Positions 1,221 through 23,209 of a stretch of DNA of 32,000 bases are shown piece by piece. The notes under the pieces are model-generated. The model was not told where the DNA came from. It saw only the letters and a list, made by a program, of their open reading frames with translations, and did not search any database. The DNA is from an uncultured Rhodospira sp. (lineage in GTDB: Bacteria; Pseudomonadota; Alphaproteobacteria; Rhodospirillales; Rhodospirillaceae): the NCBI RefSeq assembly GCF_937138205.1, contig NZ_CAKZOT010000028.1:1-32000 (forward strand). Reading direction: 5' to 3'. The position numbers and the translations under genes are program-made. The stretch's first letter is position 1. Every line of letters starts with the position of its first letter.

Positions 1221-1379
1221 ATGAGCGATCCGTCCGCCCCCGCCCGCACCGGCGGTTGCCTGTGCGGCGCCGCCCGTTTCTCGCTGGCCGAGGAGACCAC
1301 GGCGTTCTCGGCCTGCCACTGCGCTATGGACCGGCGCTGGAGCGGCGGCGACGGCGGCGCGGCAACGGACCCGGCATGA
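1221..1379 (+). pseudogene. Short remnant of a GFA/CENP-V family (Cys-rich zinc) protein, 52 codons
   Basis: MSDPSAPARTGGCLCGAARFSLAEETTAFSACHCAMDRRWSGG... resembles the N-terminal GGCxCGAVRF...CHCxxCRRWSGG pattern of GFA-family proteins. The third Cys of the second cluster is Asp, and the ORF stops after ~50 aa where the family is ~130 aa. Its TGA overlaps the ATG of the next gene (ATGA at 1376-1379). Confidence 0.35.
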
Positions 1380-2128
1380 CCCCAACTCCCGCCCCGGCCT
1401 GCGGCCTGCGCCACGTCGAGCACTGGGTCTTCGACCTGGACAACACGCTCTATCCGGCCAGCGCCCAGGTGTTCGCGCAGATGGACGCGCGCATGAAGCG
1501 GTTCATCGCCGACTACCTGGACCTGCCGGAGGACGAGGCGTTCGTGGTCCAGAAGCTCTACTATCACCAGTACGGTACGTCGATGCGCGGCCTGATGATC
1601 GAGCACGGCATGGACCCGCACGCCTTCATGGACTACGTGCACGACATCGACCATACGGTCATCCCACCGGCGCCGCGCCTGGCCGCCGCGCTGGCGGGGC
1701 TGGACGGCCGCAAGGTCGTGTTCACCAACGGCTCGCGCAAGCACGCCGAGCAGGTGCTGGAGCGGGTCGGCATCGCCGACCACGTCGAGGCTGTCTTCGA
1801 CATCGAGGCCGGGCTGTTTGTGCCCAAGCCGCATCCGGAAACCTATGACGCCATGCTGCGCCGGTTCGGCCTGGACGCCCGCGCCAGCGCCATGGTCGAG
1901 GACAGCCTGAAGAACCTGGTGCCGGCCCACGCGCTGGGCATGACGACGGTGCTGGTCCGCGACCCGTCGCACTGGAGCTTTGATCCGGACGCCGACTGGA
2001 GCCACTGCCAGCACGTCACCGATGACCTGACAGCGTGGTTGGAGGCGGTGGTGGCGGCGCGGCGGGGCGAGCGCCCCGGCCTGTTGAACGGGTCGACGAT
2101 CATTGAGGCCGGTCGATGGAACGGCTGA
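1376..2128 (+). CDS. HAD-superfamily pyrimidine 5'-nucleotidase-like hydrolase
   Basis: HAD motif I is WVFDLDNTLY (DxD). The protein also has VVFTNGSRKHAEQVL, the conserved Lys in FVPKPHPETY, and a motif IV region SAMVEDSLKNL. Overall it resembles the YjjG/Ssm-type pyrimidine 5'-nucleotidase subfamily. I chose the ATG at 1376 over the track start at 1256 because the first 40 aa of the longer ORF are Arg/Gly junk overlapping the previous ORF. Confidence 0.85.
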   Translation: MTPTPAPACGLRHVEHWVFDLDNTLYPASAQVFAQMDARMKRFIADYLDLPEDEAFVVQKLYYHQYGTSMRGLMIEHGMDPHAFMDYVHDIDHTVIPPAPRLAAALAGLDGRKVVFTNGSRKHAEQVLERVGIADHVEAVFDIEAGLFVPKPHPETYDAMLRRFGLDARASAMVEDSLKNLVPAHALGMTTVLVRDPSHWSFDPDADWSHCQHVTDDLTAWLEAVVAARRGERPGLLNGSTIIEAGRWNG

Positions 2129-2136
2129 TCTTTTGT

Positions 2137-2174
2137 GCCGCCCGACGAAAAGGATGACCTTTTCCTCGGGCGGC
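2137..2174 (+). terminator. Stem-loop directly after the HAD gene stop (possible terminator, no clear T-tract)
   Basis: gccgcccgacgaaaagg (2137-2153), loop atga, ccttttcctcgggcggc (2158-2174). This is a 17-bp stem with one mismatch, 9 nt after the stop at 2128. Confidence 0.4.
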
Positions 2175-2261
2175 CGGCGCGACCTTGGCGTCGCCTTGCG
2201 ACGCCAGCTTTTTCAGACTGGGGCCGGCGCCCACGGCGCCGCTTCGCGGCGCCGACCAAGT

Positions 2262-2463
2262 ATGGCCGACCTTTTAGCGGCCGTGGCCCCCCTCAATGCT
2301 CACCGCCGCCTACCATATGCTCAGCAACGGGACCTTCTATCAGGACCCGGGCGCCGATCACTTCGACAAACGCAACCCAGAAAAACAGCTCAACAGGCTC
2401 CTCAAGCGGATCACCGATCTCGGATTCGACGTCGAGATCAGACCCCGCACGGCGACCGCCTGA
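2262..2463 (+). pseudogene. IS110-family transposase, C-terminal remnant with a frameshift
   Basis: The frame ending in TGA at 2461-2463 reads SMLTAAYHMLSNGTFYQDPGADHFDKRNPEKQLNRLLKRITDLGFDVEIRP. This is the characteristic C-terminal tail of IS110-family (DEDD) transposases: ...AxxHMLxxGxxYxDxGADyFxxR....LxxLGyxVxl.P. Upstream, MADLLAAVAP continues the match in another frame across a C6 run (2287-2292), which implies a 1-nt frameshift. The catalytic N-terminal ~80% of the transposase is absent. Confidence 0.65.
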
Positions 2464-2656
2464 CGGAGTTTCTTGTTAGCCAAGTCTATTCCGCTCATCG
2501 GTCACGGCCCGGAAAACCGCCGAACTCCGCCCTATCTGCCCTAGAACTGATGCTCAAGCGTGCAATCCGGCGACGATGGTGCGAAGATTCGTCCGCGCAG
2601 ACGAGGCGCCGCACCCCGAATGCGAGGGAGGCGTCAGGTCAAGGGGGACGCCGGAC

Positions 2657-5476
2657 ATGATCAACCGCTTTTTCAGAGGCCTGTACAGGGCGGGTCTGCA
2701 CGGAACCAGTCTGTATTGGGCCGTGGTGATTGGCATGGGCATCTCGGCTGCCGTGCTGAGCGTGGCCGGTTGGATGGAAGTTCTGGACAAGACAGAAACG
2801 GCATTGACGCCCAGCGCGCTGCTCGATGGTGCCATCGGTACGGTGCAGATTTTCACGGGCAGCGCGCCAACCATGCCGGAATGCCAGCCCGGCAATCCGG
2901 ACTGCGCCATGGATTCGGTCCCCCTATCGCTTCGTCTCGCCCAACTTCTGGCGCCCCTGGCTGCGGCCGGCGCCGTTCTGAGGATTGGGGCCGAAGTGCT
3001 GTCCAACCAACTGGCCGCCTTTCGCATTGCAGGGATGCACGGTCACACCGTCATTTGCGGCCATGGCGACAGTGCGCGCGCCTTCGCCCGCTCGGAACAT
3101 AACGCCGGCCGGCACGTGATCATGGTGGACACCTCCGCCGGGGAAGACAATGCGGACGCCGACTTGCGCCGCCTCGGGATTGAGTTAAAGGCGGGCGACC
3201 CGCTCGATCCAGACGTCTTGCACAAGGTGGGCGTGCCTGGGGCTCGATGTTTGATCATCGCCCCGGGGGACGACAATCGCGCCCTCGACATCACCGGCCG
3301 AGCGCGGGAGGTCTGCGCGGCGACCCGCGAGGGTCCAGACAACGCCCTCCTCACCCGCTTCGAGATTTCGAACCGTCGCCTGTGGCGCCCCCTGTCGCGC
3401 TTTCACGGCCTGGCGCCCGCGCGAGAGGGCAAGACTGTTGGCGGGCGGGAGCAGGAGGCCATGGACCCGCTGCCGTTCAACATGGCCGCGCTGGCGGCGC
3501 GCGCCGTGATCTGGGGCCAGCGGCTGGAGGCCCAGGCGCTGCTGCGCGACCAGGACCGGCTGCACGTCGTGCTGATCGGCTACGACGACTTCACCGAAGC
3601 GCTGATCGGCCACCTGCCGCCGGCGGTGGCTCACCCGGCGCTCAAGACCCCGGTGATCAGCATCCTTGCGTCCGACCCGGCAGCGGCCAAGGAGCGCCTG
3701 ACGGAATCCTTCCCCGAACTGATGAAGACTCCGGACGACAGCGGAAAGGACCTTGCTGTCCGCGACATGGAACGGCGCCTCGGCCCCGTCGCCGACGTGC
3801 GGATCGACACGTTCCGCGCCGACCTGGAGCGATTGAGCGGCGCGATCATGGAGACCATCGTCGAGCGGGCACCGGTTACCACCGTGTTCGTCAGCCAGGA
3901 GAGCGATGCCGCCAGCCTGCGCACGGCCATGATCGTGCAAGACCGGATGCGCCAGGAGAACCTTTGGCATTCCCCTGTTCTTGTTCGGCTGTCGCGCTGC
4001 AAGGGCATGAACAATTTCCTGACCCAATCGCGGAAAACCAAACGGTTCGGCGAGGTTCTTCAGGCTTTCGGGGTTGAGGAGCAGTTGTGCAGTTTGTCCG
4101 TTCTGACGGGCCCTATGGAAACGCTGGCCGAGGCAATCCACGAGAAGTACGCGGAACAGAGGCGCGAGAAAAAAGAAGCGGACTCGCAAGGTGGAGTAGC
4201 ACCCACGCAGAGTGCCAGGCCGGTATCCGAGTGGGCAAGACTGCCGGAAACCTGGCGGGATTCGAACCGCCGGGCGGCCGACCACATCTTCGCCAAGCTG
4301 ACGGCGGCGGGGTGCCATGTCCCCAGCGATTTGATTTCAGCGTCCCAGTCCGAAGACAAACCGGTGCTGCCTGTTCCGCCCGGTTTCGACCTGCTCCCGA
4401 GAGACACGGACGCGGATCGAAAACGCCGCGACCGTCTGGCCGAACTGGAGCACGCATCTTGGATCGCCGGGCGCCGACTGGACGGCTGGCAGTACAACGC
4501 GAAGCGCGATGACGACCGACAGTGGCATCCCAGTCTCATTCCTTACGACGACCTTGGCGAAGACCTCAAGGCGTACGACCTGGACCAAGTTGACCTGTTG
4601 CAAATAGAACTCGGGCGTACGGGGAGAGGCTCGGGCGCGGACCAGGACACGCGCGAAGCACGAAAAGGATTGCTGACGGAAGCATCAAAGGCGGATCAGG
4701 ACGGCCTGATCCGCCATGACCTGTGGATCGGTCTGATCGGCAAGCTCTATATCACAACGGACGAGGGGTGTTGGCTGGCGGCGGATGACGAGGCGGACCC
4801 GAATGGCGGCGCCCCCAAGACCTTCAAGGCCAAACTGCGGCGCAGTCTGGCGGACCACCCCGAGGCGTTCGTGTCCCTGGTGACCCCACTTGCCCCGGGC
4901 GCCGACGTGGCCATGACACGGGCGGCCCAGGAGGTTCTGAGCGATCTCGGGCGCGCGTATCGTCTCTTGGTGCTTGAGGCCGTGCCCGAGGACATCCTTC
5001 TCGACGATTATGTCCGAAAAATCGAAGGATCAACGGACGCTTTCGACGGGTTCGACACGGTGCCGCAGGACCCCGGCGAAAGCTGGCGTGCTGACCACAA
5101 AGCGAACCGCGAACACATTCTGAACGAAGAGACAACCGAATGGATCATCGACCTGCGCGAGCCCACGCCACGCTCGTGCGAGCGGTGCGACACTCCGGAC
5201 ACACCCTACCAGAGGGCCGCCTACTACATCGCCGAACGCGCCCATATCCTGTTCGCGGCCGACAGATTGAGCGAAGCAAAGGGAACACCCGCGCCGGGCG
5301 GCGTCTCCGATACGCTGGCCAAACGCGACGCCTTCACCGAAGACGGGAAATGGCTGTCGGGCTGCACACTGTTCGCGTTGTCCCCGTTCACACGCGACCG
5401 CGTGGTTCTCGACCTCGATGATCTCTCCAGAGGCACCCGCAAGCAGGATTCACTGCCGGGCGAGGACACCCCGTGA
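2657..5476 (+). CDS. Membrane protein: 2 TM helices + two TrkA-N/RCK-like Rossmann modules + RyR (ryanodine-receptor repeat)-like domain + uncharacterised C-terminal domain
   Basis: ATG at 2657 with AAGGGGGA ~9 nt upstream. Hydrophobic helices are SLYWAVVIGMGISAAVLSVAGWM and LAQLLAPLAAAGAVLRIGA. Rossmann-like strands are HTVICGHGDSARAFA...HVIMVD and HVVLIGYDDFTEALIG. The RyR-type motifs are LAEAIHEKYAEQRR...WARLPETWRDSNRRAADHIFAKL and ELEHASWIAGRRLDGWQYNAKRDDDRQWHPSLIPYDDLGEDLKAYDLDQV (nt ~4120-4590). The C-terminal ~250 aa has ...FVSLVTPLAPGADVAMTRAAQEVLSDLGRAYRLLVLEAVP..., which is of unknown type. The stop overlaps the next gene's start (GTGA). Confidence 0.8.
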   Translation: MINRFFRGLYRAGLHGTSLYWAVVIGMGISAAVLSVAGWMEVLDKTETALTPSALLDGAIGTVQIFTGSAPTMPECQPGNPDCAMDSVPLSLRLAQLLAPLAAAGAVLRIGAEVLSNQLAAFRIAGMHGHTVICGHGDSARAFARSEHNAGRHVIMVDTSAGEDNADADLRRLGIELKAGDPLDPDVLHKVGVPGARCLIIAPGDDNRALDITGRAREVCAATREGPDNALLTRFEISNRRLWRPLSRFHGLAPAREGKTVGGREQEAMDPLPFNMAALAARAVIWGQRLEAQALLRDQDRLHVVLIGYDDFTEALIGHLPPAVAHPALKTPVISILASDPAAAKERLTESFPELMKTPDDSGKDLAVRDMERRLGPVADVRIDTFRADLERLSGAIMETIVERAPVTTVFVSQESDAASLRTAMIVQDRMRQENLWHSPVLVRLSRCKGMNNFLTQSRKTKRFGEVLQAFGVEEQLCSLSVLTGPMETLAEAIHEKYAEQRREKKEADSQGGVAPTQSARPVSEWARLPETWRDSNRRAADHIFAKLTAAGCHVPSDLISASQSEDKPVLPVPPGFDLLPRDTDADRKRRDRLAELEHASWIAGRRLDGWQYNAKRDDDRQWHPSLIPYDDLGEDLKAYDLDQVDLLQIELGRTGRGSGADQDTREARKGLLTEASKADQDGLIRHDLWIGLIGKLYITTDEGCWLAADDEADPNGGAPKTFKAKLRRSLADHPEAFVSLVTPLAPGADVAMTRAAQEVLSDLGRAYRLLVLEAVPEDILLDDYVRKIEGSTDAFDGFDTVPQDPGESWRADHKANREHILNEETTEWIIDLREPTPRSCERCDTPDTPYQRAAYYIAERAHILFAADRLSEAKGTPAPGGVSDTLAKRDAFTEDGKWLSGCTLFALSPFTRDRVVLDLDDLSRGTRKQDSLPGEDTP

Positions 5477-6684
5477 CGTCCCTTCCTCAAGCCCCGACCC
5501 GTGACGAACACCTGTTCTCGCCGGGACCGAAACGAATGCTGGCGCTCGACGGTGGCGGCGTGCGGGGGATCATCTCGGTCGCCTTCCTGGAGCGGCTGGA
5601 GGCCCTGCTGGCTCGGCGCCATCCCGATCCGGAGACGTTCAGACTCTGCGACTACTTCGACCTCATCGGCGGCACCTCCACCGGCGCCATCATCGCCGCG
5701 GGCCTCGCCCTGGGGATGAAGGTCGCGGAAATCCGGCGGTTCTACCTTGACCTCGCGCCCCGGGTCTTCCGTCAGGGCTGGTTCCGCATCGTCGGCGTGC
5801 AGCCGCTGTTCGACGCGCGCCGCCTGACGGAGGAGATTTCCCGCCAGGTCGGGGACCGCGCGCTCGACAGCCCGGACCTGCGCACCGGCCTGGTCATCGT
5901 CACCAAGCGGATGGACACGGGAAGCCCATGGATCCTGAGCAACGTGCCGGGAACGGCCTATTGGGACACGCCGAGCGACGGGGCGTTCCTGGGGAACCGC
6001 CATTACCGGCTCGCCAATCTGCTGCGTGCGAGTACGGCGGCCCCCTACTACTTCCAGCCTGAGCCGATCCCGGTGATCGACGGCCAGCCCCCGGGTTGGT
6101 TCGTGGACGGCGGCGTCTCGCCCTACAACAATCCCGCGCTGGCGCTGCTGCAAGTCGCGACGCTGCGCGCGCATGGCTTGCGGTGGAAGACGGGAGAGGA
6201 CAATCTCCTCCTGATGTCCATCGGCACCGGCTGTCAACGCACACGCGTGCCGCCCGACAAGGTCGGCCGCCTGTCCTCGGTCGGCTTGGCGGTGCGTGCC
6301 CTGGGCGCGGTCATCGAGGATGGGCAGGCCCTGGCGGTTGCCTTGCTGCAGGCGCTGTCGCGGCCGATCGACCCCTGGCACATCAACTCCGAGATCGGGG
6401 GCCTGGAGGACGACTGTCTCGGCGGGCAGCCCTTGCTGTCCTTCCAACGGTTCGACGTGCGTTTCGATCCCGGCTGGATCGCCACGCACACCGGCCTGAC
6501 GGTTTCGGACCGGGACCTCGAAGGCCTTGAACGGTTCGACTACCCGCCGATCGTTCCCTTGGCCGACCGCATCGGACGGGCCGCCGCCGCGCGGCTGGTC
6601 AGGGAGGACCATTTTCCCCCGGCGTTCGACACGCCGGCGACGGTCCGTCCGGCCACCGCCGACCCGCCGCCACCCCAGCGGTAG
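5473..6684 (+). CDS. Patatin-like phospholipase
   Basis: All three patatin motifs are present: the oxyanion hole LALDGGGVRGII, the nucleophile elbow IGGTSTGAIIA (GxSxG) and the catalytic Asp in FVDGGVSPYNNP (DGG). GTG start at 5473 with GAGGA 6 nt upstream, overlapping the upstream TGA by 4 nt. Confidence 0.9.
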   Translation: MTSLPQAPTRDEHLFSPGPKRMLALDGGGVRGIISVAFLERLEALLARRHPDPETFRLCDYFDLIGGTSTGAIIAAGLALGMKVAEIRRFYLDLAPRVFRQGWFRIVGVQPLFDARRLTEEISRQVGDRALDSPDLRTGLVIVTKRMDTGSPWILSNVPGTAYWDTPSDGAFLGNRHYRLANLLRASTAAPYYFQPEPIPVIDGQPPGWFVDGGVSPYNNPALALLQVATLRAHGLRWKTGEDNLLLMSIGTGCQRTRVPPDKVGRLSSVGLAVRALGAVIEDGQALAVALLQALSRPIDPWHINSEIGGLEDDCLGGQPLLSFQRFDVRFDPGWIATHTGLTVSDRDLEGLERFDYPPIVPLADRIGRAAAARLVREDHFPPAFDTPATVRPATADPPPPQR

Positions 6685-6698
6685 CCGCCCGGCAAGCC

Positions 6699-9600
6699 TC
6701 ACCGGGCCTGCGCCAGGGGAAAGTCCTGGATGGTTCCGCCGCTCTTGAACTGGGCCTGCTGCCGGTATCCCTTCTCGCTGGCGAACAGCGGGACATGCTG
6801 CTTCACCTCGGTGCCCAGTTCCAGGACGGTGGCGACGCCATCGCCGCTTCGCGTGGCCTCTTCGAGAGCGGTCAGCACGGCATGACCGAACACACCGTTG
6901 CTCTCGTTGTACCCGTCCAGCGCTTCTTCTTCGGTCGAAGACGCTGCGAGAATGAAATACCCCGTTTCATTGCCGATCTCGCCGGGCGTGTTGGCCGGAA
7001 ACGCTCCCGAATGGCACGTATCAAGCATGACCAGGGTATTGGCCCCCATCAGGGAGCCGAACAGGGAGATGAGCCGGTCCTGGTCGACCCCCACCGCCGA
7101 CGCGCCGCTCGCCCCGGGCCCGTCGTGGGTCAGGAAGCGGTATCGCCGATCCTCGGTCAGGGTCCCATGCCCCGCCAGATAGACGACGACCGTATCGTTC
7201 GGCTTGATGCGTTGGCCGACCTCGGCGAACGCGCTCTCCAGCCCCGAGACCGTCGCATCCTGGTCGAACCGCCGCACAACAATGACGTCGTCGTACGCCG
7301 TCGCGGGCATGGCCAACAGCTTTTCGGACACAGAAAGCGCGTCACGCCGCGCAAAGGCCAGGTCCTGGACGGCGTCATAGACGTCGATCCCGACCGCGAT
7401 GACGAAGAGGATCGGTTTCTCCTGCTTCTCGGGTTCCGGAACCTGCAGGGAAAGGGTCACGGACTTGCCGAACACCCCCGAGGCGCCATAGGCCCTGACG
7501 GACACCGTGTTCAGACCGGGCTTGACCGCAATAATCCGGTCGGCCTGGACCGTGCTTTCCCCGTCCTCGCCCCCCTCGTCGGCAACCACCTCGGGCCGCT
7601 GGCGCGACAGGCCGCGAGTCAGGGTGCCCGTCGTGCGCCCGTTCAGGAACACAACGTGCCGGTCAATGGCTTCAGAGCCCGGAGTCATTTCATAGACCAG
7701 GCGAACCCGATCGAACCCAGGCGGCAGCGTGGACACCGCCGCGGGGGACGTTGTCTCCTCGGTTCGGCGGCGTGACAGCCCGCGACGGGCGTGCTCGGCC
7801 GGGAAACAGGCGGCATCGGCGCCATCCGCGTCGACAGCGCAGTACCGCACCAGACGCACCTTCGGCGCCTTGGCGATCGCCTCGGCCACGCCGGGCGCTT
7901 CTTCGCGGTCGGGCGCGTATTCCTCTTCTTCGACCCGTGGGGGTGTCTCCAGCTCTATCCGGCCCACCCGCTGGCGCATCCGGTCGATATCATAGAAGCG
8001 GCTGTAGAGCTGTGAGAAGTCGATCCAACGCGCGACATTGCGCCGGCCCCGGTTCTGGACGTAGCCGGCCAGCTCCTGGCCGCCGGCCGAATGCGCGAAG
8101 CGGCCGTCGGGCGACCACAGGATCCATCGCTGTCCGTCACCATGCACGAACAGAGCCGCGATTTCCCGCAAAACAGGGCCGGGCTCCAGCGCATACCACC
8201 GGATCGTTCCGTCTCGATGCGCGGCGACAAGGCGGTCGCCGTCGCCCGAGGCCACGACCCCGGAGGCCGCCGTCAGCACCACCTTTTCCCGTGTCACGGC
8301 CCCATCCCCGGAGAAGGTGGTCACCGCATAGTCACTGCCGATGGCGACCCCGCCACCCGGCAGCATCGTCGCACTGCGCGCGATGTCGCGGGGCCGCGCC
8401 ATGTCGAGTGGCTGCCCGGCGATTGACGGCGTGCGTCCGTCGCGCCATCCGGTCAGCCCCTCCGGCACCGACGGCGCCGAAAATGCCGGTGCGGCCTCGG
8501 GGGCGTCGGTGAGCGTCAACGTCCGCGCGTCGAACCGCAGGACCTTCGAGGTGTCCCCGGTGCGGAAAGTGAAATCAACGACCGCGCCATCGCGGGAGAC
8601 ACGGAAGACATCATCAAAGATGCCCCGGAAATCGGCGGTGGCCGGGCCTTGCCGAAATGCCACCGTGCCCGTTTCGCCCGTGATCCGGCCCCAGGCGGGG
8701 TCCCCGGTCGCGAACAGGACGTCCTGGTCAGGCGTGGTTTCCAGACGCGTCACGGCATCGCGGCTGACCGGGATATCGACGAACGCGTCGGGCCGCTCCA
8801 GGTCAGCCCAGCGCCGCACCACGATCTTCCGATCGGGGTTGACGAGTCCGCCGGAGGCCCAAAGCTCCGGCCCCGCCGCACCGGTCCGCCAGGCGACGGC
8901 ACTGAAAAACCGTTCGTCGGTGTCGGGACGATCGCCGGCAAGGGTCCGCGCGTGTTCCAGCGTATCGGCCTCCAGAATATCGACGCGGGGCTGGTCCACG
9001 TATGTCACGGCCAGCCACCGTCCATCGGGCGAAAAGCGCGCCTGGGCCGGCCGGCCGGATTCCGCCTGCCACGACTGAACGGTCTCGAACCCCACGCCGT
9101 AGACGCGAACCACCCCGTTGGTCGCCGCGGCCGCAAGGCGGCCATCGGGCGCGAACTCGACCCACGTCGTGGGCGCCCCAAGATCATCCGAGAAGACGCG
9201 TTGCAGCCGCTCGTTAATCACAATGATCCCGGCGGGATTGCGGGAGTGCGCGGTCGCGAGGCGGGTTTCGCGGGCCTCGGGCGCGGCGCGAAAGGTATCG
9301 ATGGCGTTGACAATGCCGCCGCTGGCCACGCGGTCGATGACATCAAGGCCGGAGGCAAAACGGATGAAGTACAGAAGGTTGAAACGCCGCCCCTGCTCGT
9401 CGGCGAAATAGCGGGCGCCCGTGAACCCGGCGGTGATGATGTGGCTTTCCCCCGGCCAATATCGGACGGCATTGAGAATGCCTTCCTCTTCGGGTCCGAT
9501 GGGCGTCCGGACGGTCTCAAGCAGTTCACCTGTGGTGGCGTCCCATAACCGCAACGTTTTATCGTCGGAAACAGTGGCCACGACCTTACCGTCGGCCCGC

Positions 9601-9794
9601 ACCGTCATGTCGCGAATTGTGCTGGTGTGGGAGCCGGTTTCGATCCGAAGGATCGGGTCCGTCGGCAGGCCGTCCGCGCGGGCGGCCGTGCTGACCAACC
9701 CATGACTCATTGCCAGGGTCACCAGACCCACCAGACCCCAACACAGGCGAACCGCAATGCGCCACAGCGGCGGCTGCTCGGCCGTCATGACCAT
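6699..9794 (-). CDS. Exported WD40/beta-propeller protein with C-terminal caspase-like (peptidase C14) domain
   Basis: Signal-peptide-like N-terminus: LWRIAVRLCWGLVGLVTLAMSHGLVSTAARA/DG. One classic WD40 blade (HTSTIRDMTVRADGKVVATVSDDKTLRLWD) is followed by degenerate blades (DRLVAAHRDGTIRWY, WILWSPDGRFAHS...). The C-terminal caspase fold has ILFVIAVGIDVYD, VVVYLAGHGT (catalytic His) and LVMLDTCHSGAF (catalytic Cys). I favour the ATG at 9794 (GGGAG 7 nt upstream); the track start at 9821 is also possible. Confidence 0.85.
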   Translation of the reverse strand: MVMTAEQPPLWRIAVRLCWGLVGLVTLAMSHGLVSTAARADGLPTDPILRIETGSHTSTIRDMTVRADGKVVATVSDDKTLRLWDATTGELLETVRTPIGPEEEGILNAVRYWPGESHIITAGFTGARYFADEQGRRFNLLYFIRFASGLDVIDRVASGGIVNAIDTFRAAPEARETRLATAHSRNPAGIIVINERLQRVFSDDLGAPTTWVEFAPDGRLAAAATNGVVRVYGVGFETVQSWQAESGRPAQARFSPDGRWLAVTYVDQPRVDILEADTLEHARTLAGDRPDTDERFFSAVAWRTGAAGPELWASGGLVNPDRKIVVRRWADLERPDAFVDIPVSRDAVTRLETTPDQDVLFATGDPAWGRITGETGTVAFRQGPATADFRGIFDDVFRVSRDGAVVDFTFRTGDTSKVLRFDARTLTLTDAPEAAPAFSAPSVPEGLTGWRDGRTPSIAGQPLDMARPRDIARSATMLPGGGVAIGSDYAVTTFSGDGAVTREKVVLTAASGVVASGDGDRLVAAHRDGTIRWYALEPGPVLREIAALFVHGDGQRWILWSPDGRFAHSAGGQELAGYVQNRGRRNVARWIDFSQLYSRFYDIDRMRQRVGRIELETPPRVEEEEYAPDREEAPGVAEAIAKAPKVRLVRYCAVDADGADAACFPAEHARRGLSRRRTEETTSPAAVSTLPPGFDRVRLVYEMTPGSEAIDRHVVFLNGRTTGTLTRGLSRQRPEVVADEGGEDGESTVQADRIIAVKPGLNTVSVRAYGASGVFGKSVTLSLQVPEPEKQEKPILFVIAVGIDVYDAVQDLAFARRDALSVSEKLLAMPATAYDDVIVVRRFDQDATVSGLESAFAEVGQRIKPNDTVVVYLAGHGTLTEDRRYRFLTHDGPGASGASAVGVDQDRLISLFGSLMGANTLVMLDTCHSGAFPANTPGEIGNETGYFILAASSTEEEALDGYNESNGVFGHAVLTALEEATRSGDGVATVLELGTEVKQHVPLFASEKGYRQQAQFKSGGTIQDFPLAQAR

Positions 9795-9840
9795 CGTCAA
9801 ACTCCCTGAGTCGTCTGTCATCGCCGGCGTGTGACGGGGG

Positions 9841-9880
9841 CTCCACTGGGAACTCCACTGGGAACTCCACTGGGGGCTCC
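9841..9880. repeat. 12-bp tandem repeat (ctccactgggaa x3 plus a partial copy) in the intergenic spacer
   Basis: ctccactgggaa ctccactgggaa ctccactggggg ctcc, read directly at 9841-9880. It lies between the stop of the SH3 lipoprotein gene (9984) and the start of the WD40-caspase gene. Confidence 0.75.
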
Positions 9881-9983
9881 GCCAGCCCTTCTCGTTCGGA
9901 TCACGTCACCCGCGCACGGTCCCGGTCCCCGCTTCGGAACCGGTTCCGCGCAAACGGTTGCAAAGCCGAGGCCCCAAGGGGCA

Positions 9984-11048
9984 TCAGCTGAGGGTGAAGG
10001 CGTCGGTTTGCGCCTTGGACGTCGCCACTTCCTCGTACACGCGATCCCGCTTCTCGACATTGGCCAGGCTGACGGCCTGCAGGTCGCCGACCTTGTCCCG
10101 CTCGTTCGAGGGCAGAACCACGTCGTCAACGCGCCCGGGAGGAAGCGGTTTTTCCGCCGGCCGGTTCTCGATTCGCGCCGAAGCCGGACCGGCCCCGCGA
10201 CCGCGACCGATCAGGAAATCGGCGATGTAGGCTTGGCCGCCGTTCGGATTGACGATCCGCGACCACCCGTTCGCGCTCGACAAGACTGTCACACGGGTTC
10301 CCCGGGTCAGGCGGCCCACCTTGTCGTACTGCGTTCCGGGTCCCGACCGCAAATTGGCGGTGCGCGTCACGCGCGCGCCACCGCCCTGGGACAGGCGCGG
10401 CGCATTGACCTCAAGCTGCCGGCCGCCGTTGTCCGCCGCGATCTGGTTGTAGACGGCCGCATAGCCCTCGGTTCGGTCGGAAATGTTGCTGGCGATGCGC
10501 TCCATCTGTCGCACGTCTTCCTGGTACCGTTCGCGCACAGCGGCCATGCGCTCCTCGGCGACGGCGCGCGTGATGCGGCCGGCGTCAAGGGCCTCGCGGA
10601 TGTCCTGGGCCTCGTCGTACCGGCACCCGCGCAACGCCTCGAACCGGGTCAGCAGCAGGTCGATGCGGGTGTTTTCCTCGCGAACACCCTTGATGGCCGC
10701 CTCCGTAAGTTCGACCGAATTGCCGGTCTGCCGTTGAAGGTCGTACAACAGAGTTCCGGCGAGCGCGGCCGCGGCGCCCAGACCGGCCCCGACAAACGGA
10801 TTCTCATCGGCGAGCAGCGCCCCCAGGGCACCCGCCCCCGCCCCCAACAGGACATTGCGGAGCACCTCGGTTTCGAACGTGTTGCCGGTGCTGTCCAGGG
10901 CGGCCCGTTGGGCGTAGCATTTGTCGTCCTTGTCGGACAGATACCCCCCGGGAAGGATGCTGCCGATATTCGTTGTCTGGCAACCGCCAAGGACCAGCGC
11001 CGTCGCGACCGCCGTTGTCATGAAAAAGCGAGACCTCGTGTACGTCAT
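9984..11048 (-). CDS. Lipoprotein with Gly-zipper region, coiled-coil segment and bacterial SH3 domain
   Basis: ATG at 11048 with GGAGG 8 nt upstream. The lipobox is MTYTRSRFFMTTAVATALVLGG/C. There is a Gly/Ala-rich zipper (LLGAGAGALGALLA...GAGLGAAAALAG) and an SH3_3-like segment (ANLRSGPGTQYDKVGRLTRGTRVTVLSSANGWSRIVNPNGGQAYIADFLI). Confidence 0.75.
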   Translation of the reverse strand: MTYTRSRFFMTTAVATALVLGGCQTTNIGSILPGGYLSDKDDKCYAQRAALDSTGNTFETEVLRNVLLGAGAGALGALLADENPFVGAGLGAAAALAGTLLYDLQRQTGNSVELTEAAIKGVREENTRIDLLLTRFEALRGCRYDEAQDIREALDAGRITRAVAEERMAAVRERYQEDVRQMERIASNISDRTEGYAAVYNQIAADNGGRQLEVNAPRLSQGGGARVTRTANLRSGPGTQYDKVGRLTRGTRVTVLSSANGWSRIVNPNGGQAYIADFLIGRGRGAGPASARIENRPAEKPLPPGRVDDVVLPSNERDKVGDLQAVSLANVEKRDRVYEEVATSKAQTDAFTLS

Positions 11049-11076
11049 AAAAGATGCCTCCGCTGAAAGCCCAGGA

Positions 11077-17577: not shown

Positions 17578-17968
17578 TAGCCCCCCTCCAATACAAAGAA
17601 AGCGTTCGACGATCGGAATGCCAATACGATCAAAGGGAAATATCGTTTCTTTGTCCCCGAACCCATGAACCATAGGGAGGCGTATTTAAATATTGCATTT
17701 TGTGGTGTTTATCCTATTATAGATTTTCTGTCAAGGGGCACGGAACAGATTCGTCGGCAAGGTGCTGTTGAATGGTATTGCCGCGAGGCGGCACCCGGGC
17801 TCGGCCTTTCAATCGTCAGTCCGTCGCCCCGCGGCGACGGAAGGTGAACGGTGAAACCAGCAGTCGACAATTGAATACGGCGCCGATTCTCGTGCCTGGG
17901 GACGTGACTCCCCGAATTGGCCGGCAAAGCATTTAGGCGATTCCGATTTGATCTTGTTGGAGGGGGCA
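17578..17968. promoter_or_regulatory. Divergent intergenic control region with a strongly AT-rich patch
   Basis: The ~390-bp spacer lies between the minus-strand six-gene operon and the plus-strand STAND gene. The 17680-17740 stretch (gtatttaaatattgcattttgtggtgtttatcctattatagattttctg) is far more AT-rich than the rest of the window. A perfect 8-bp hairpin, ccgtcgcc-ccgc-ggcgacgg, sits at 17821-17840. Promoters are inferred, not mapped. Confidence 0.4.
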
Positions 17969-20900
17969 GTGGGTGACGTCCGGGTCTTCATTTCATCCCC
18001 AGGGGATGCACAGGCGGAACGCGCCCGCATTGAGAGGGCAATCGATCGACTAAACGGCCTGATAGGGGGCTCCGTCCGCCTCAAGGCGATCCGTTGGGAA
18101 TCGGGCTACTACACGGCGGCCAGCACCTTCCAGACCCAGATTCCGGAAGCGGCGGAGTGCGACATCGTCCTGGCGGTTCTGCGCCACCGACTGGGGACGC
18201 CGCTGCCCGAGGACTTCAAGCGGATGTCGGACGGCGCGCCATATCCCAGCGGGACCGCCTACGAGATCCTCTCGGCGGTCCACACCAGCCAGCACAAAGG
18301 GACCCCCGACGTCTACGTGTTCCGCTACGCGCACCCACCCCAGGTGGGCAATATCGACGACACCGCGGCGCTGACCCAGACCCGGGAGGACTGGGAACGC
18401 CTGAAGGGGTTCTTCCAGTCCTGGTTCGAGACGGATACCGGTCAGTTCAAGGCTGCCTTCCATCGATATGACAGCGTCGACGTGTTGGAAGGTCAGGTGG
18501 AGGATCTCCTCCAAACCTGGGTCGAAGACCATCTGAACACGGGCCAGCTGGTCGAGTGGCCGATCCACCTCAAGGGCTCGCCTTTTCGAGGCCTTGCCGC
18601 GTTCGGCGCCCGGCACGCCGCCGTCTTCTTCGGTCGCCGGCGTGAAACCCTGCGCGCCGCCGAGGCGCTCAAGGATGCGGCGGACCGGGGCACACCGGCG
18701 CTCCTGCTGGTCGGCCCAAGTGGTTCCGGAAAATCCTCCCTGGCGCGCGCTGGACTGATCCCGCATCTGACCGCGCCGGGCGCGGTCTCGGACGTCGACC
18801 TGTGGCGGGTGGCCAGCCTCTGTCCGGGTGAACATCCCGACGGGCCCGTTGCGGCCCTGGCCGCGCGCCTGTTCACGGCCGAGCGGGATATGGAGCCGGA
18901 CGATGAGGGCTGGCCGCGCGCCCTGCCGGAACTTGCCCACGGCGACTTCGCGACCCCGGACGCCCTTGCGGCGTTGCTCGCCGGCACGAACACCACTGCG
19001 GCAACAGGCCCCATCCTGGCCGCATTGGACCGCGTGGCAGAGGAAACCCGGCGCACGGAAGCGTTCGACAGGCCGGTCACCGTCCGCCTCTTGCTCCTCG
19101 TGGACCAGTTCGAGCAGCTTTTCGCCGACGCCGTGGATCAGGCAGACAGAACCGCGTTCACAACCCTGCTGCGGGCGCTTGTGGAGACGCGACGCGTCTG
19201 GGTGATCGGCACGCTGCGAGCCGACTACTATGAAGCCTTCATTGCCGACCCCAACCTGCTGCCCCTGAAGCGCGACGGCGCCCACGTCGATCTCCGTCCG
19301 CCCGGCATGGACGCGATGGCCGAGATCATCCGCGCCCCGGCACGGGCGGCCGCCCTCGTCTACGAGGTCGATGCCAAGGGTACCGGTCTCGACGAGCGGA
19401 TTCTGGCCGAGGCCGATCGGCCCGACATGCTGCCCCTGGTCCAGTTCACGCTGAACCGGCTGTTCGAGGTCCGGAGCGAGGCGAGCGGCGAAATCCGGCT
19501 GACCCATGCCGCCTACGACGCCATGGGGGGGCTTGACGGGGCCATCAATCAGGAAGCCGACCGGGCCATCGCCAATCTCGGCGAGGCGGACCGGAAAACC
19601 TTGCCGCGCCTGCTCCGCCTGATGGTCGTGCCAGCCACCAACGCGGGCTCGGCCAGCGAGGCCTCGCGCCGCATGGCCGTGCGGCCGATCCCCTGGCGCA
19701 CGGCCACGGGCGACCCGGCGCAACGCCGGCTCGTGGAGGCCTTGATCGAAGCGCGTATTCTGTATCTGTCCGGAAGCGGCCCAAAGGCGCACGTTCAGCT
19801 CGCGCACCAGCGCGTCCTGGAAAGCTGGGCGCTCGCACGCAAGATCGTCGCCGACAACGTGGACTTCTTCCGCATCCGCCAGGATGTGGAGGACGCCCGC
19901 GTCCGCTGGCAGACCAGCAACCGCCCCCGCGACCGCCTGATCCCCCCAGGCGTCGCGCTGGCCGAGGCGGAATCCCTCGCCGCCCGGTTCCAGGATGAGT
20001 TGACCGAGGACACGCGCGGCTTCATCCGCGCTTCGGGCCGGCGGGCGCGGCGGCGCCAGAGGCTCACCACCATGGCCGCGGCGGTCTTCGCGGGCGTCGC
20101 GGTGCTCGCCGCTTGGTCGTACATGCAGGCGGAAACCGCCCGGAATGAGGCGGCCGGCAACTACCAGATCGCCCTGAATGTGGTCGACGGCCTCGCCCTG
20201 GACATCATCGAGGGCCTGCAAACCAACTGGAGCGTCCCCGTCGAGGAGAAGCTTTACGTCGCCGACAGGATCGAGGGAAATCTCGGCGACCTCGTGGCGG
20301 AGGTTGAAGACGACCAGGTACTGAGGTTGCGGTACGCGGATGTCCTGGCGTCGACCGCATACATGCTTGCCCTCGTCGGTCATCACCGCGCGGCGGAAGA
20401 CAGCGCGCAAAACGCCGCCCGACAATTGGCGACGATCGATCCGGACACCATCGACACACGCGGCTGGGACAAGGCCCGGCCGGCGGCGTTGACCCAGGCC
20501 CGGGTGAACGTCGCTTTGGCCTTGGGACGATGGCAGGCCTTCGATCAAGCCGCCGTGGAGCGCCATCTCCGCAGCGCAGAGGACAGCCTGGCCCGCCTGT
20601 CCGCCTCGGAGACGGAGGTCACGGCTTCCGACGTTGCAGAGCTCAGGGCATGGATGGACGATCTTCGGATCACCCTGATGATCGCCAGACGCGACACCCT
20701 GGCCTACCAGGAAGAGCATATGGCGGCGGTGGAGCGCCGCCGGGCCGACCTCGAACGGGCCCGCGACAATGGCGACACCCGCGCGGCACGCCTCATCGCC
20801 TTCCACCTTGCCAAGCTCGCCGTGGGCGATGCCGCCTTCGCGGCGGGAACCGGAGCGCGCGACTTCGAGGACCGGCACAAACGCGCGTCGGAGATTTCGG

Positions 20901-23209
20901 CGGAAGTGGCCTCGGTTTTCGTCGAGCCATCGGATCCGGCCCTCGTCTATATCGAGGCCAGCATGGACCTGACCCGGGCGGCGAACCTCGCCGAACGGGG
21001 TGGACAGGACGCCACAGCGTTGGCGACCCGCGCCATCCAGCGCTTGTTCGGCCTTGTCCAGCAGGATTTCCTGAACCTGGAATGGCGGCACATCCTGACC
21101 CACGCGCTGGGCCGGCGGGCACAGTGGGCGTCGGCGCATTCCAACGCGACCCTGTCGTTGGGCGACGCCCTGGCCGCGCGCCAGATCGCCCTGTCCAGTC
21201 TCAGGGACGGGGGTCTGACCCGCGATGTGTTCGCGACCGCGAACTGGGCGGACTACGTCACCGGCGCGCATCGCGCGGTGGGCAGCCAGGATGCCCGCGC
21301 CGCCTTCGCCCGCATTACCACGCGTGTCGACGGTTTGGCGGCCGACGGCGTGGACGATCCCGCCTTGGCGCGGTTCAAGTTCCTCGCGAAACAGGGGCTG
21401 GCGCGCCACCTGTTGAAACGGGCCGAGGCCGGACCCGCGCGAGCCGACGATGCGTCGAGGCGCCGTCTCCTGCTGGAGGCGAAGGAAGCGGCCATGGCCG
21501 CTCTCGACACCCTGCCAGACCGGCCGCCGGCCGACGGGACCGCCAGCTTGCCGACGGAGATCGACCGGCACGCCGCACTCACTGATTTGGTGCGAATCGC
21601 CGAACAAATGACGGAGACGCGCCTGCTTGACCAGGCGCTCGACGACGCCCTGCGGCAAAACGCAGTGCTGTTGTCCCTGACCGGCGGGGGCGCGGTTTGG
21701 CATCAGGACCGGGGCGCTTTGCGTGCGCGCCTGGCGGATACGCGCGCCGAACAGGACCGGTGGCAGGAGGCTGGGGAGGCCTATGCAAGGGCGGCGCGCG
21801 ATTTCGCCAAGGCAATGGCCGCGGACGCCCCGACGGCGGCGCGGCTGCAGAACCTCTTGGCCTATGCCCAACGCGCGCTCAAAGCCCAGGCCAAGACAGG
21901 GGACTGGGCAGCCGCCAAGGCCCTGTTTGCCGAGGTCACGGAGATTTTGGACGGATTGGACACGCTTCCCGGCGATCCAAGGACCCGTTTCGACTCTTGG
22001 ATCGCGTTGACCGAGGCCCTTGAAACAGCGGCGCCCTCTCCCTCCGCGTTTCAAGACACGATTGTCGATCTCCAGTCCCAGGCGGACCGCGTCACGACGC
22101 GCCTGCAGCGTCCGCCCACCGAGACGGACCCGGCGCACGGAAATCGAGCGCACGCCATCGATTTCCGCCCGTTGGACCTGCCAACCGCCGCCGGATCGAG
22201 CGCACAGGCCGGCGTCCCGGACGGCTCCATCGGCTGGGAGGCGCCGCCTCTCATGTCCGGGCCATGGACCACGCTGGTTGGCGCGGACTTCGAGACAGCC
22301 GTCGGCCATCTCAAGGCCATGCAGCATCATGTGCCTGGAGAGAACCGCCGGCAATACATCCGCATTCGGACCTTGCGTCTCCCGTTCTACCAGGACGCCC
22401 GGGTTCTCGAAGCTGAGTATCCGGGACCGGATGGTCGCATCCTGTCCCTGGGGGCTTTGCGGGCGAAAGGCGTCACCCGTCTTCTGGACGGCACGGAACT
22501 GTACATTGTTGCCGCCAACAGCAGCGGCCTGGAGATCGATACCCACTCGCTGGCGGCTGGGTACCTTAAGTTCCGACAAGCCTACACGGCCCCGCACGGC
22601 AGCGGACCGCCCGACCGCATTGTCGAGAGCCTGGCCGATCTACACCTGCAGCCGGGCGTCGATCCGAGCACGCGGGAGCGGATCGGGGCCTTGATCCGCC
22701 CTCTGGCGGTCTGGCGCGATCCGGATGCGCCCGGGGGATGGCGGGCCACGGCGGCCGTTCTGCGGGGCAACACACTGCTCCACGCGGCATTTCGTCTCGA
22801 TCAAGCGGGCACCGTCACCATGACCGAGCATCGGGTCGTGGCCTCGGGGCTGCTTGTCCGCCGGCGCTGGTTCAGCACGGACGGTTCGCTGGTGACCGAC
22901 AGACCGCACGGTCTCGACGTTCGCGCGCTCGATCTTCCGGACGTCCAGGCGGAACCGCGCATTTTGTTGCGCTTGGCGGAGGGCAATGACGCGGCGACAT
23001 CGCTCGGCGCGGTCACGCTCATCGACATGGCGATGGCACACGCCAAGCTGGCCACGGAGCACGGGGAGATGACCCAGGCCGCCTATGCGGGCGAATTGGC
23101 GCGGGCCGCCCGCACCCTGCGAGACCAGGATCGCCCGCAGGTGGCTGAACGCTATGAACGGGAGTTGAGGGCCCTCTCGGCGTCGACCTCCGGCGAACAG
23201 GCTGAATAA
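17969..23209 (+). CDS. Giant DUF4062 (TIR-like) - STAND P-loop NTPase - single TM helix - long helical region - unknown C-terminal domain protein
   Basis: GTG at 17969, 5 nt after GGAGG; the track start is a TTG at 17948. The N-terminus VRVFISSPGDAQAERARIERAI...ECDIVLAVLRHRLGT...PSGTAYEILSA matches the DUF4062/TIR-like pattern (FISSxxxDxxxER...CDhhhhhhGxRYG...SxTExEY). The STAND entry motif is PFRGLAAFGARHAAVFFGRRRE. Walker A is LLLVGPSGSGKSSLARAGL (nt 18713-18739) and Walker B is LLLLVDQFEQLF. A sensor/WH region has LPLVQFTLNRLFE. A basic cluster plus hydrophobic helix, RRARRRQRLTTMAAAVFAGVAVLAAWSYM, lies at nt ~20063-20122. About 680 aa of Ala/Leu/Arg-rich helical sequence follow, then a ~350-aa domain with no motif I recognise. 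Confidence 0.85.
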   Translation: MGDVRVFISSPGDAQAERARIERAIDRLNGLIGGSVRLKAIRWESGYYTAASTFQTQIPEAAECDIVLAVLRHRLGTPLPEDFKRMSDGAPYPSGTAYEILSAVHTSQHKGTPDVYVFRYAHPPQVGNIDDTAALTQTREDWERLKGFFQSWFETDTGQFKAAFHRYDSVDVLEGQVEDLLQTWVEDHLNTGQLVEWPIHLKGSPFRGLAAFGARHAAVFFGRRRETLRAAEALKDAADRGTPALLLVGPSGSGKSSLARAGLIPHLTAPGAVSDVDLWRVASLCPGEHPDGPVAALAARLFTAERDMEPDDEGWPRALPELAHGDFATPDALAALLAGTNTTAATGPILAALDRVAEETRRTEAFDRPVTVRLLLLVDQFEQLFADAVDQADRTAFTTLLRALVETRRVWVIGTLRADYYEAFIADPNLLPLKRDGAHVDLRPPGMDAMAEIIRAPARAAALVYEVDAKGTGLDERILAEADRPDMLPLVQFTLNRLFEVRSEASGEIRLTHAAYDAMGGLDGAINQEADRAIANLGEADRKTLPRLLRLMVVPATNAGSASEASRRMAVRPIPWRTATGDPAQRRLVEALIEARILYLSGSGPKAHVQLAHQRVLESWALARKIVADNVDFFRIRQDVEDARVRWQTSNRPRDRLIPPGVALAEAESLAARFQDELTEDTRGFIRASGRRARRRQRLTTMAAAVFAGVAVLAAWSYMQAETARNEAAGNYQIALNVVDGLALDIIEGLQTNWSVPVEEKLYVADRIEGNLGDLVAEVEDDQVLRLRYADVLASTAYMLALVGHHRAAEDSAQNAARQLATIDPDTIDTRGWDKARPAALTQARVNVALALGRWQAFDQAAVERHLRSAEDSLARLSASETEVTASDVAELRAWMDDLRITLMIARRDTLAYQEEHMAAVERRRADLERARDNGDTRAARLIAFHLAKLAVGDAAFAAGTGARDFEDRHKRASEISAEVASVFVEPSDPALVYIEASMDLTRAANLAERGGQDATALATRAIQRLFGLVQQDFLNLEWRHILTHALGRRAQWASAHSNATLSLGDALAARQIALSSLRDGGLTRDVFATANWADYVTGAHRAVGSQDARAAFARITTRVDGLAADGVDDPALARFKFLAKQGLARHLLKRAEAGPARADDASRRRLLLEAKEAAMAALDTLPDRPPADGTASLPTEIDRHAALTDLVRIAEQMTETRLLDQALDDALRQNAVLLSLTGGGAVWHQDRGALRARLADTRAEQDRWQEAGEAYARAARDFAKAMAADAPTAARLQNLLAYAQRALKAQAKTGDWAAAKALFAEVTEILDGLDTLPGDPRTRFDSWIALTEALETAAPSPSAFQDTIVDLQSQADRVTTRLQRPPTETDPAHGNRAHAIDFRPLDLPTAAGSSAQAGVPDGSIGWEAPPLMSGPWTTLVGADFETAVGHLKAMQHHVPGENRRQYIRIRTLRLPFYQDARVLEAEYPGPDGRILSLGALRAKGVTRLLDGTELYIVAANSSGLEIDTHSLAAGYLKFRQAYTAPHGSGPPDRIVESLADLHLQPGVDPSTRERIGALIRPLAVWRDPDAPGGWRATAAVLRGNTLLHAAFRLDQAGTVTMTEHRVVASGLLVRRRWFSTDGSLVTDRPHGLDVRALDLPDVQAEPRILLRLAEGNDAATSLGAVTLIDMAMAHAKLATEHGEMTQAAYAGELARAARTLRDQDRPQVAERYERELRALSASTSGEQAE

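Follow-up and report, generated by a model that had tools for sequence, protein, structure and literature searches.

A membrane protein with tandem RCK and RyR domains, translationally coupled to a patatin-like phospholipase: a candidate Thoeris-like sensor-effector pair in an uncultured Rhodospira

What might a membrane protein built largely from ligand-binding domains do when its stop codon is shared with the start of a phospholipase gene? The question is raised by a 32,000-nucleotide stretch of DNA from an uncultured Rhodospira sp. (assembly GCF_937138205.1, contig NZ_CAKZOT010000028.1, positions 1 to 32,000 of the forward strand; hereafter the window), in which an open reading frame (ORF) for such a protein, ORF A, runs into a patatin gene, ORF B. 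An earlier note, made from the sequence alone, had proposed that the two form a sensor-effector pair used in biological conflict. We consider it somewhat better than an even bet that ORF A is a membrane-anchored sensor of nucleotides derived from nicotinamide adenine dinucleotide (NAD), that ORF B is its co-translated phospholipase effector, and that the two act as receiver and executioner, one half of a Thoeris-like abortive-infection system. The observations behind this reading are how ORF A is built, that ligand and catalytic residues are conserved, that the genes are coupled, and that linkage to one patatin subfamily and to TIR genes recurs. Three parts of ORF A are candidate ligand modules: a tandem of RCK domains, a tandem resembling Repeat12 of the ryanodine receptors (RyR), and a C-terminal domain that is probably SLOG/DprA-like.

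The coupling of the genes depends on where each of them starts. The longest reading frame of ORF A spans 2576–5476; the start to be preferred within it is the ATG at 2657, which has a Shine-Dalgarno sequence (GGGGGA) 8 nt to its 5' side and to which the N-termini of homologues align. The GTG start of ORF B overlaps the ORF A stop by 4 bp (GTGA) and has GAGGA 6 nt upstream. Since the sequence RDxHLFGPGPKR is conserved ahead of the internal Met22 of the patatin, the GTG start is real, and with it the overlap described in the earlier note. An HAD hydrolase gene upstream (1256–2128) is followed by a terminator-like hairpin, and a convergent WD40-caspase gene ends 14 bp past the patatin stop; ORF A and ORF B therefore constitute a separate two-gene unit.

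Evidence for a sensor begins with the RyR module. Pfam RyR (PF02026) matched residues 590–645 of ORF A with 55.2 bits (cut-off 27.4), and the peptide that the earlier note had quoted for this domain, EHASWIAGRRLDGWQYNAKRDDDRQWHPSLIPYDDL, corresponds to residues 598–633. The module moreover turned out to be a tandem and not the single repeat first described: conservation in relatives, Foldseek and a profile search of the PDB all gave two repeats, the first of them divergent. The PDB search matched Repeat12 of RyR1, RyR2 and RyR3 together with bacterial RyR proteins (E = 1e-23 to 1e-15), and Foldseek aligned ORF A with the Repeat12 tandems of RyR1/2/3 over ~170–190 columns at 22–28% identity; phage RyR proteins were also matched structurally. 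According to two 2026 preprints, phage RyR-domain proteins bind the cyclic ADP-ribose (cADPR) signals 2'cADPR, 3'cADPR and cADPR at nanomolar affinity, and one of them, RyDEP, is described as cleaving these three signals to ADP-ribose (ADPR). The contacts given there are H75, W78, H100 and D117 for RyDEP with ADPR/3'cADPR, and H129/W132, K147/H154 and K170/D171 for RyR-Tad. In ORF A, H599, W602, H624 and D641 have exactly the RyDEP spacing (+3, +25, +42); the pocket also fits H129/W132, H154 and D171 of RyR-Tad, with R617 at the K147 position. Of 125 relatives, 122 retain H599, 124 W602, 91 H624 and 118 D641, and the pocket is therefore under strong constraint. There are good grounds, in the sequence, to predict that it binds an adenine or ADPR-type ligand.

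A conserved pocket of this kind might also remove a signal. Like phage RyDEP and RyR-Tad, the RyR module of ORF A could hydrolyse or sequester cADPR-type molecules and so act as a sink or safety catch, setting a threshold below which the patatin or other effectors stay silent; both the catalytic RyDEP dyad (His, Asp) and the ligand-binding residues are kept, and cleavage of 2'/3'cADPR has to date been reported for no enzymes other than RyR-domain proteins. The preprints, however, describe identical residues in non-catalytic sponges and in animal RyRs, so that their presence is no indication of catalysis. A buffer, besides, has no need of a pore scaffold, tandem RCK domains and an extra Rossmann-like domain, and the recurrent operon place beside a TIR gene (see below) is the place of the effector in Thoeris. 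We regard a signal sink as quite improbable. Compared with the phage proteins RyDEP and RyR-Tad, ORF A has the PF02026 domain and the same ligand-contact residues at the same spacing in common, but those proteins, small and soluble, work as dimers to destroy or sequester a host signal, whereas ORF A carries an intramolecular tandem in a host membrane protein, and its genes stand beside TIR and patatin genes, which is a receiver position and not an anti-defence one.

We asked what scaffold carries the RyR module. An AlphaFold model of ORF A built from the 125 relatives reached a predicted local distance difference test score (pLDDT) of 89.2 and a predicted template modelling score (pTM) of 0.89; a 3-sequence alignment had given a pLDDT of 36. 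The top Foldseek match of the model in the PDB was GsuK, a K+ channel gated by several ligands and with two RCK domains per chain, whose full-length chain aligned over 520 columns, and the NAD- and ADP-bound GsuK entries 4gx2 and 4gx1 were among the best matches, followed in the ranking by TrkA (4j9v), full-length MthK and Slo1. Pfam TrkA_N was found at residues 132–220 (37.1 bits, cut-off 23.8), in agreement with the dinucleotide loop G135-H-G137-D-S-A and the conserved D158 read from the sequence of the first RCK domain; for the second Rossmann module and the C-terminal domain, support comes from the model and from the Foldseek alignments with GsuK and TrkA, both of them tandem-RCK proteins. 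The 939-aa membrane protein with two Rossmann modules and an extra C-terminal domain that the earlier note had drawn was thus borne out by Pfam, AlphaFold and Foldseek. Ahead of the RCK domains, hydropathy gave two hydrophobic helices (16–43 and 90–115), and the model placed helices at 17–45, 52–66 and 90–125, a layout of first transmembrane (TM) helix, pore helix and second TM helix.

This layout places between the TM helices, at the position of the K+-channel pore helix and TVGYG filter, a family consensus, FLDxLYRTLQLFxLE, that resembles a K+-channel pore helix. A TVGYG-type filter is absent from ORF A and from the family consensus of the 125 relatives: after the pore helix the window reads TGSAPTMPE... 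and the consensus LFxLE. A plain K+ channel is thereby ruled out, as the earlier note had anticipated from the missing filter, although the modelled fold is still that of a GsuK-like, RCK-gated channel, with a degenerate filter. Because of this combination of fold and filter, ORF A may unite the role of a sensor with that of an effector pore. Like GsuK, which is regulated by NAD+ and ADP, it combines in a single chain two TM helices, a pore helix and, after them, tandem RCK domains; unlike GsuK, MthK and TrkA, it has a non-conserved loop in place of TVGYG, adds the RyR tandem and a putative SLOG-like domain, and lies in a conflict context instead of one of ion homeostasis. Two insertions are specific to the window protein. 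One (residues 70–89, 2864–2923) lengthens the loop between the TM helices and contains the cysteines C76 and C83; the other (residues 653–670, 4613–4666) adds 18 Gly/Arg/Asp-rich residues after the second RyR repeat and has low model confidence.

The C-terminal Rossmann-like domain is probably SLOG/DprA-like. Its alpha/beta topology and its motifs IGLIGK, LAPGAD and PGGVSDTL fit the SLOG pattern of a Gly-rich loop after strand 1, GxD after strand 2 and a GGT-x-E-like sequence close to the C-terminus. Its matches to single Pfam members were weak (YpsA, E = 0.014; DprA, E = 0.26), and a DprA-like match in BFVD had a probability of 0.99, with no query region reported. By hhalign, neither E. coli Smf nor PpnN gave a significant match, only the GLAxGID motif aligning with Smf, and a PADLOC search gave no match to the domain. 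Homology was found to the N-terminal domain of a family of four-transmembrane (4TM) proteins that is linked to the patatin (hhalign 98.2%, E = 2.8e-14 over 164 columns; hmmsearch between the two domains, E = 7.8e-10), with the motifs IG(L/I)xGH, LA(P/E)GAD and GGT in common. The 4TM proteins, of 610–650 aa, consist of this soluble N-terminal domain and four hydrophobic helices, with a faint match to DUF4231/SLATT. In architecture, this uncharacterised family agrees with a candidate Thoeris effector that Yirmiya et al. (2025, bioRxiv 10.64898/2025.12.03.692087) call 'SLOG and 4TM', and it may correspond to it.

The executioner assigned to the pair is a predicted Ser-Asp patatin phospholipase. 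Pfam Patatin (PF01734) matched ORF B with 103.5 bits (E = 2e-29, cut-off 27.7), so that all three families named in the earlier note, TrkA_N, RyR and Patatin, scored above their curated cut-offs. The catalytic motifs that it had listed, GGGxRG (residues 27–32, 5551–5568), GTSTG (67–71, 5671–5685) and DGG (212–214, 6106–6114), are invariant in 11 of 11 homologues. The best match was a CBASS-effector phospholipase in PADLOC (3e-42) and CapV in the PDB (9e-23); patatins of this kind are established membrane-destroying effectors (PMC12480259). With the cyclic oligonucleotide-based antiphage signalling systems (CBASS) and CapV, ORF B has in common the patatin fold, the catalytic motifs and the presumed logic of a membrane attack triggered by a nucleotide. 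It differs in its partner, a membrane sensor protein, in having no recognised, CapV-like ligand domain past residue 290, and in the absence of a CD-NTase cyclase: none was found among the scanned ORFs of the window, as had been noted before, or among the scanned neighbours in related loci. NCBIfam CBASS_lipase scored 110.5 bits against ORF B, under its equivalog cut-off of 200. Taken with the missing cyclase, this rules out CBASS as the identity of the system.

To find the genes that accompany each protein in other genomes, linkage was followed from both sides. For ORF A, an exhaustive profile search gave 290 cluster representatives at E ≤ 1e-30. A word-indexed protein search had yielded only two relatives, and three with a 32-sequence profile. 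Genomes were scanned with motif patterns taken from a 10-sequence alignment (patterns from a 3-sequence alignment found no relatives, and none could be drawn from the 32 sequences because of their diversity), and 9 matches were obtained among 185,579 species representatives, a sparse and patchy distribution; a scan of viral contigs found no relative of ORF A. Most representatives have ~800–880 aa and the full architecture, others ~590–600 aa, ending after the RyR module. Ten outlier relatives that were scanned had TrkA_N and RyR alone and no fused effector.

Across 19 non-redundant loci of the ORF A family (window included; L numbers denote individual loci), a patatin of the same subfamily (37–48% identical to ORF B) directly adjoins the ORF A relative in six (window, L008, L010, L015, L017, L022), in three gene orders, and a TIR-domain gene adjoins it or lies in the same cluster in eight (L002, L008, L010, L012, L017, L018, L019, L020). 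The commonest third partner of the pair is this TIR-domain gene. RyR protein, patatin and TIR occur together in four loci: in L008, L010 and L017, with ends overlapping or nearly abutting, and in L027, where a patatin (P0013, 55% identity) is followed by a short RyR protein and a TIR gene, with a TIR-nSTAND1-WD40 gene nearby. On the patatin side, ten loci of the subfamily were compared (the window and nine homologues). The partner is an RyR-family protein in two (window and L027), a 4TM protein of the family described above, adjoining the patatin as its commonest neighbour, in five (L006, L026, L029, L030, L031), and a DUF4062-nSTAND1 gene directly ahead of the patatin in one (L028); two have no clear partner (L004, L032). 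A membrane protein with an RyR or SLOG-like domain thus stands beside the patatin in 7/10 loci, and, given the homology between the ORF A and 4TM domains, the pair joins a wider pattern in which this patatin subfamily lies beside membrane proteins with an RyR or Rossmann-like domain.

TIR- or DUF4062-bearing nSTAND1 genes recur nearby (window, L002, L006, L027, L028, L030), those of L027 and L030 being canonical TIR-nSTAND1 genes. Genes for nSTAND1 proteins flank ORF A relatives in L002 and L016, and a DUF4062-nSTAND1 gene lies directly beside the patatin in L006 and L028. The ORF A and patatin families co-occur in taxa as distant as Alphaproteobacteria, Woeseiaceae and Thiothrix, and the expectation that the pair would be conserved held in so far as it recurs in distant genomes and in three gene orders; the pairing is nevertheless facultative, the patatin having other partners as well. 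The neighbourhoods, which differ from locus to locus, contain TIR, nSTAND1, SLATT and caspase genes and not genes of lipid or ion housekeeping, as a ligand-sensing membrane protein and patatin effector in a conflict setting would lead one to expect.

These neighbourhoods also bear on an everyday role, in which ORF A would regulate a transporter or be itself a cation channel under RCK control, lipid turnover would be the task of the patatin, and their adjacency would be irrelevant to conflict. A homologue carries the name 'voltage-gated potassium channel Kch' in one source, the fold is that of an RCK channel, and the patatin homologues of L004 and L032 stand alone amid metabolic genes. But the selectivity filter is missing, the family is sparsely distributed with neighbours that vary by locus, TIR, nSTAND1 and SLATT genes recur around it, and some relatives are on mobile elements. 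We give housekeeping very little credence.

From these observations we infer a ligand, a control of ORF A over the patatin, a pore activity and a defence phenotype, which would fit together as follows. Upon infection, a TIR or TIR-like NADase would turn NAD+ into an ADPR-derived signal. This signal would be bound in the RyR pocket of ORF A, and perhaps also by the SLOG-like or RCK domains. A conformational change of ORF A would then license the patatin at the membrane and may also open a non-selective ORF A pore, and the loss of the membrane would kill the infected cell. The signal maker would be the operon-encoded TIR in relatives; for the window, the DUF4062-nSTAND1 protein, acting in trans, is the only candidate present. 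We read the trigger as Thoeris-like because TIR is the commonest third partner and because RyR domains bind cADPR/ADPR. The different trigger logic that the earlier note had posited would accordingly belong to a familiar scheme.

The pair would be a variant of Thoeris-like signalling. The survey by Yirmiya et al. lists types I–XI and further predicted ones, with 29 putative effector types that include 'Ion channel' (type X, ThsK) and 'SLOG Patatin' besides 'SLOG and 4TM'; in its accessible text and supplementary material, the terms RyR, TrkA and PF02026 do not occur. As in Thoeris, the operons of the relatives join a TIR gene, a protein predicted to bind an ADPR derivative and a presumed membrane-damaging output, the putative SLOG-like domain recalls ThsA, and membrane effectors are found in types II, VII and X. 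Unlike Thoeris, the candidate sensor has an RCK-channel scaffold bearing a Repeat12-like RyR tandem, the lipase has a gene to itself instead of forming a SLOG-patatin fusion, and a TIR gene encoded in the operon, present in 8/19 ORF A-family loci and in L027, is missing from the window. The type X effector ThsK invites comparison with ORF A; the type X TIRs showed only generic ThsB-level similarity to the TIR of L002, and a search of a plasmid collection with a type X TIR found only a type II system with a Macro-domain effector.

Several observations weigh against a Thoeris-like receiver and executioner. A search of the window by tblastn with ten partner proteins, with two purpose-built TIR hidden Markov models and with Pfam found no canonical TIR gene, so that a source acting in trans would be required for the signal. 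The two closest ORF A homologues (55% identity) have no patatin, and 6/19 loci (L001, L009, L011, L013, L014, L023, two of these contigs being short or ending at the gene) have no patatin, TIR or nSTAND1 gene in the flanks that were fetched. Short-form relatives that lack the C-terminal domain also pair with the patatin, and the domain is therefore not needed for pairing; its SLOG assignment is, moreover, statistically unestablished, a sequence-profile search of the PDB with the domain having matched nothing. PADLOC has no model that matches ORF A. Since the His and Asp of the RyDEP glycosidase are kept, the RyR domain could degrade the signal instead of sensing it, and, by analogy with CapV, the patatin could sense a ligand alone.

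This last point leads to an arrangement of two parallel effectors, in which ORF A would be a ligand-gated, non-selective pore, comparable to the ion-channel and transmembrane effectors of Thoeris types X and II, and the patatin would be activated by the signal separately, outside the control of ORF A. It draws on the fold that ORF A shares with GsuK and MthK, pore domain included, on the many ORF A-family loci that have a TIR gene and no patatin (L002, L012, L018, L019, L020), on documented Thoeris operons in which two effectors answer one signal, and on the direct binding of their own nucleotide by CapV-type patatins. On the other hand, the K+ filter is missing and conduction through ORF A is a prediction; from the 4-bp overlap one would expect both proteins to be made in matched amounts; the RyR or SLOG-like membrane partner in seven of the ten patatin loci fits a dependence of the patatin on its partner; and the region of the patatin beyond residue 290 offers no recognised ligand domain. 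Two independent effectors seem to us unlikely without being negligible, and the reading of ORF A as the sensor and ORF B as its effector is retained below.

Features of the locus and the evidence on which each was assigned (positions in the window; residue numbers refer to ORF A)
Feature	Position	Strand	Description	Evidence
Terminator-like hairpin	2185..2207	+	Downstream of HAD hydrolase gene; 10-bp stem, 7 G-C pairs, T-rich tail	
ORF A	2657..5476	+	939 aa; two-helix membrane protein, tandem RCK, tandem RyR, C-terminal Rossmann-like domain	ORF and translation, Pfam, AlphaFold, Foldseek
Membrane module	2702..3001	+	TM1 16–43, pore-helix-like helix 52–66, ~23-residue loop with two Cys, TM2 90–115	Hydropathy, model
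Tandem RCK / TrkA-N Rossmann domains	3038..4096	+	Residues ~128–296 and 300–480	Pfam TrkA_N, Foldseek GsuK/TrkA
Tandem RyR repeats, Repeat12-like	4112..4606	+	Repeat 1 ~486–556 (H495, Y498, W526, K547); repeat 2 ~585–650 (H599, W602, R617, H624, D641)	
C-terminal Rossmann-like alpha/beta domain	4709..5437	+	Residues ~685–927; motifs IGLIGK, LAPGAD, PGGVSDTL	Model, hhalign to 4TM family
Coupling junction	5462..5476	+	GAGGA Shine-Dalgarno 5462–5466, GTG start 5473, ORF A stop TGA 5474–5476; GTGA overlap 5473–5476	Read from sequence
ORF B	5473..6684	+	403 aa; patatin-like phospholipase (predicted)	Pfam, PADLOC, NCBIfam, PDB, invariant motifs
DUF4062-nSTAND1 protein	17948..23209	+	1753 aa; sole TIR-like candidate signal maker in the window	Pfam nSTAND1 (4e-80)

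Where would the signal come from in the window itself? The N-terminal domain of the nSTAND1 protein scored 24.4 bits against DUF4062, just under the cut-off of 24.7, and keeps the GT-x-(Y/W)-E motif. A 2026 report describes DUF4062 (Swarozyc) as a TIR-like NADase with ADPR as its product. Alignment of the domain with TIR domains by hhalign gave no clear answer, and its link to TIR rests on the DUF4062 literature. The same type of domain is found near relatives of the pair in nSTAND1 proteins of L002, L006 and L028 and in an ankyrin protein of L025. The DUF4062-nSTAND1 gene lies 11 kb from the pair, beyond a cluster of protease genes, and we infer a functional link between them as a hypothesis. 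Systems of the nSTAND1/DUF4062 (Swarozyc) type resemble the present one in having DUF4062-nSTAND1 genes beside patatin relatives (L006, L028) and within the window, but neither ORF A nor ORF B has an NTPase or DUF4062 domain.

The intervening cluster (6699–17673, minus strand) encodes a WD40-caspase protein (1040 aa), an SH3 protein, a serpin, a trypsin-caspase-DUF4384 protein (801 aa), a caspase (562 aa) and a protein with an OmpA domain. The cluster is syntenic in the metagenome locus L001 as far as the fetched sequence reaches, the OmpA gene lying outside it, where most proteins are 56–67% identical and the trypsin-caspase is more diverged; the ORF A orthologue of that locus abuts the cluster with no patatin, and its upstream genes are unlike those of the window. 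ORF A might accordingly belong functionally to this convergent caspase/serpin cluster, the patatin having been inserted later. That its orthologue converges on the same cluster beside different upstream genes fits such an origin, as does the fact that caspase-like proteases are effectors of TIR signals in type IV Thoeris. L001 is the only other such locus, however, and possibly just a related genome; the cluster is absent from 17/17 of the remaining ORF A-family loci; and the convergent orientation means that ORF A and the protease genes are not co-transcribed. We hold membership of a protease island to be highly improbable.

A LexA repressor gene (25720–26571, plus strand), followed by DUF2336 and LuxR/PAS regulator genes, edges this stretch of conflict genes with ordinary chromosomal ones, and a glycosyltransferase gene is also present in the remainder of the window. 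The window has a G+C content of ~66% and gave no matches in Rfam and tRNA scans. A further reading frame, 2103–2660, whose end overlaps the ORF A start (ATGA), was dismissed as a gene: it matched no family and includes the terminator-like hairpin of the HAD gene.

If ORF A senses NAD-derived nucleotides, it would matter beyond this locus. Binding and cleavage of TIR-made cADPR signals by RyR Repeat12 domains were shown in 2026 for phage anti-defence proteins, the only proteins with which the available text of the RyR preprints is concerned. With a RyR Repeat12 of intact binding residues in a channel-shaped protein, ORF A is a concrete candidate for a host-side receptor of cADPR-type signals, its family suggests an origin for the phage RyR sponges, and it may offer a bacterial model for how such ligands act on a channel-attached RyR domain. 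The pairs formed by this patatin subfamily and membrane proteins with an RyR or SLOG-like domain are so far not captured by the PADLOC catalogue. A bolder proposal, which we put forward tentatively and regard as doubtful in its full form, is that the ORF A family consists of bacterial channels gated by ADPR/cADPR through RyR Repeat12 downstream of TIR. They would be the prokaryotic counterpart of the way in which cADPR and the ryanodine receptor are linked in animals, from which the animal link may even have evolved, and the source of the phage RyR sponges and glycosidases. The activated channel would also license the patatin, so that one signal would produce both ion leak and lipid destruction.

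The loci of the relatives vary in further ways. In Thiothrix caldifontis (L015), a short-form RyR protein and a patatin are followed by a small SLATT/DUF4231 protein (12714–13175), with no TIR gene within 10 kb. On the Sinorhizobium meliloti conjugative plasmid pEm1132b (L025, 195209–212741), the patatin lies ~6 kb from a short-form ORF A relative, beside an ankyrin-repeat protein headed by a DUF4062-like domain, and adenylate/guanylate cyclase genes are nearby. Two TIR-TPR paralogues (65% identical; 6722–9847 and 13098–15179) flank the ORF A homologue of L019, a low-G+C sediment contig. In L002, the segment directly 5' of the ORF A homologue (1282–4496) encodes a TIR-TGT fusion, an Ogg-HhH protein, QueC and a small ThsB-type TIR, and this association of TIR domains with parts of the 7-deazaguanine (preQ0) pathway could reflect an unusual base-exchange signal or a link to DNA modification.

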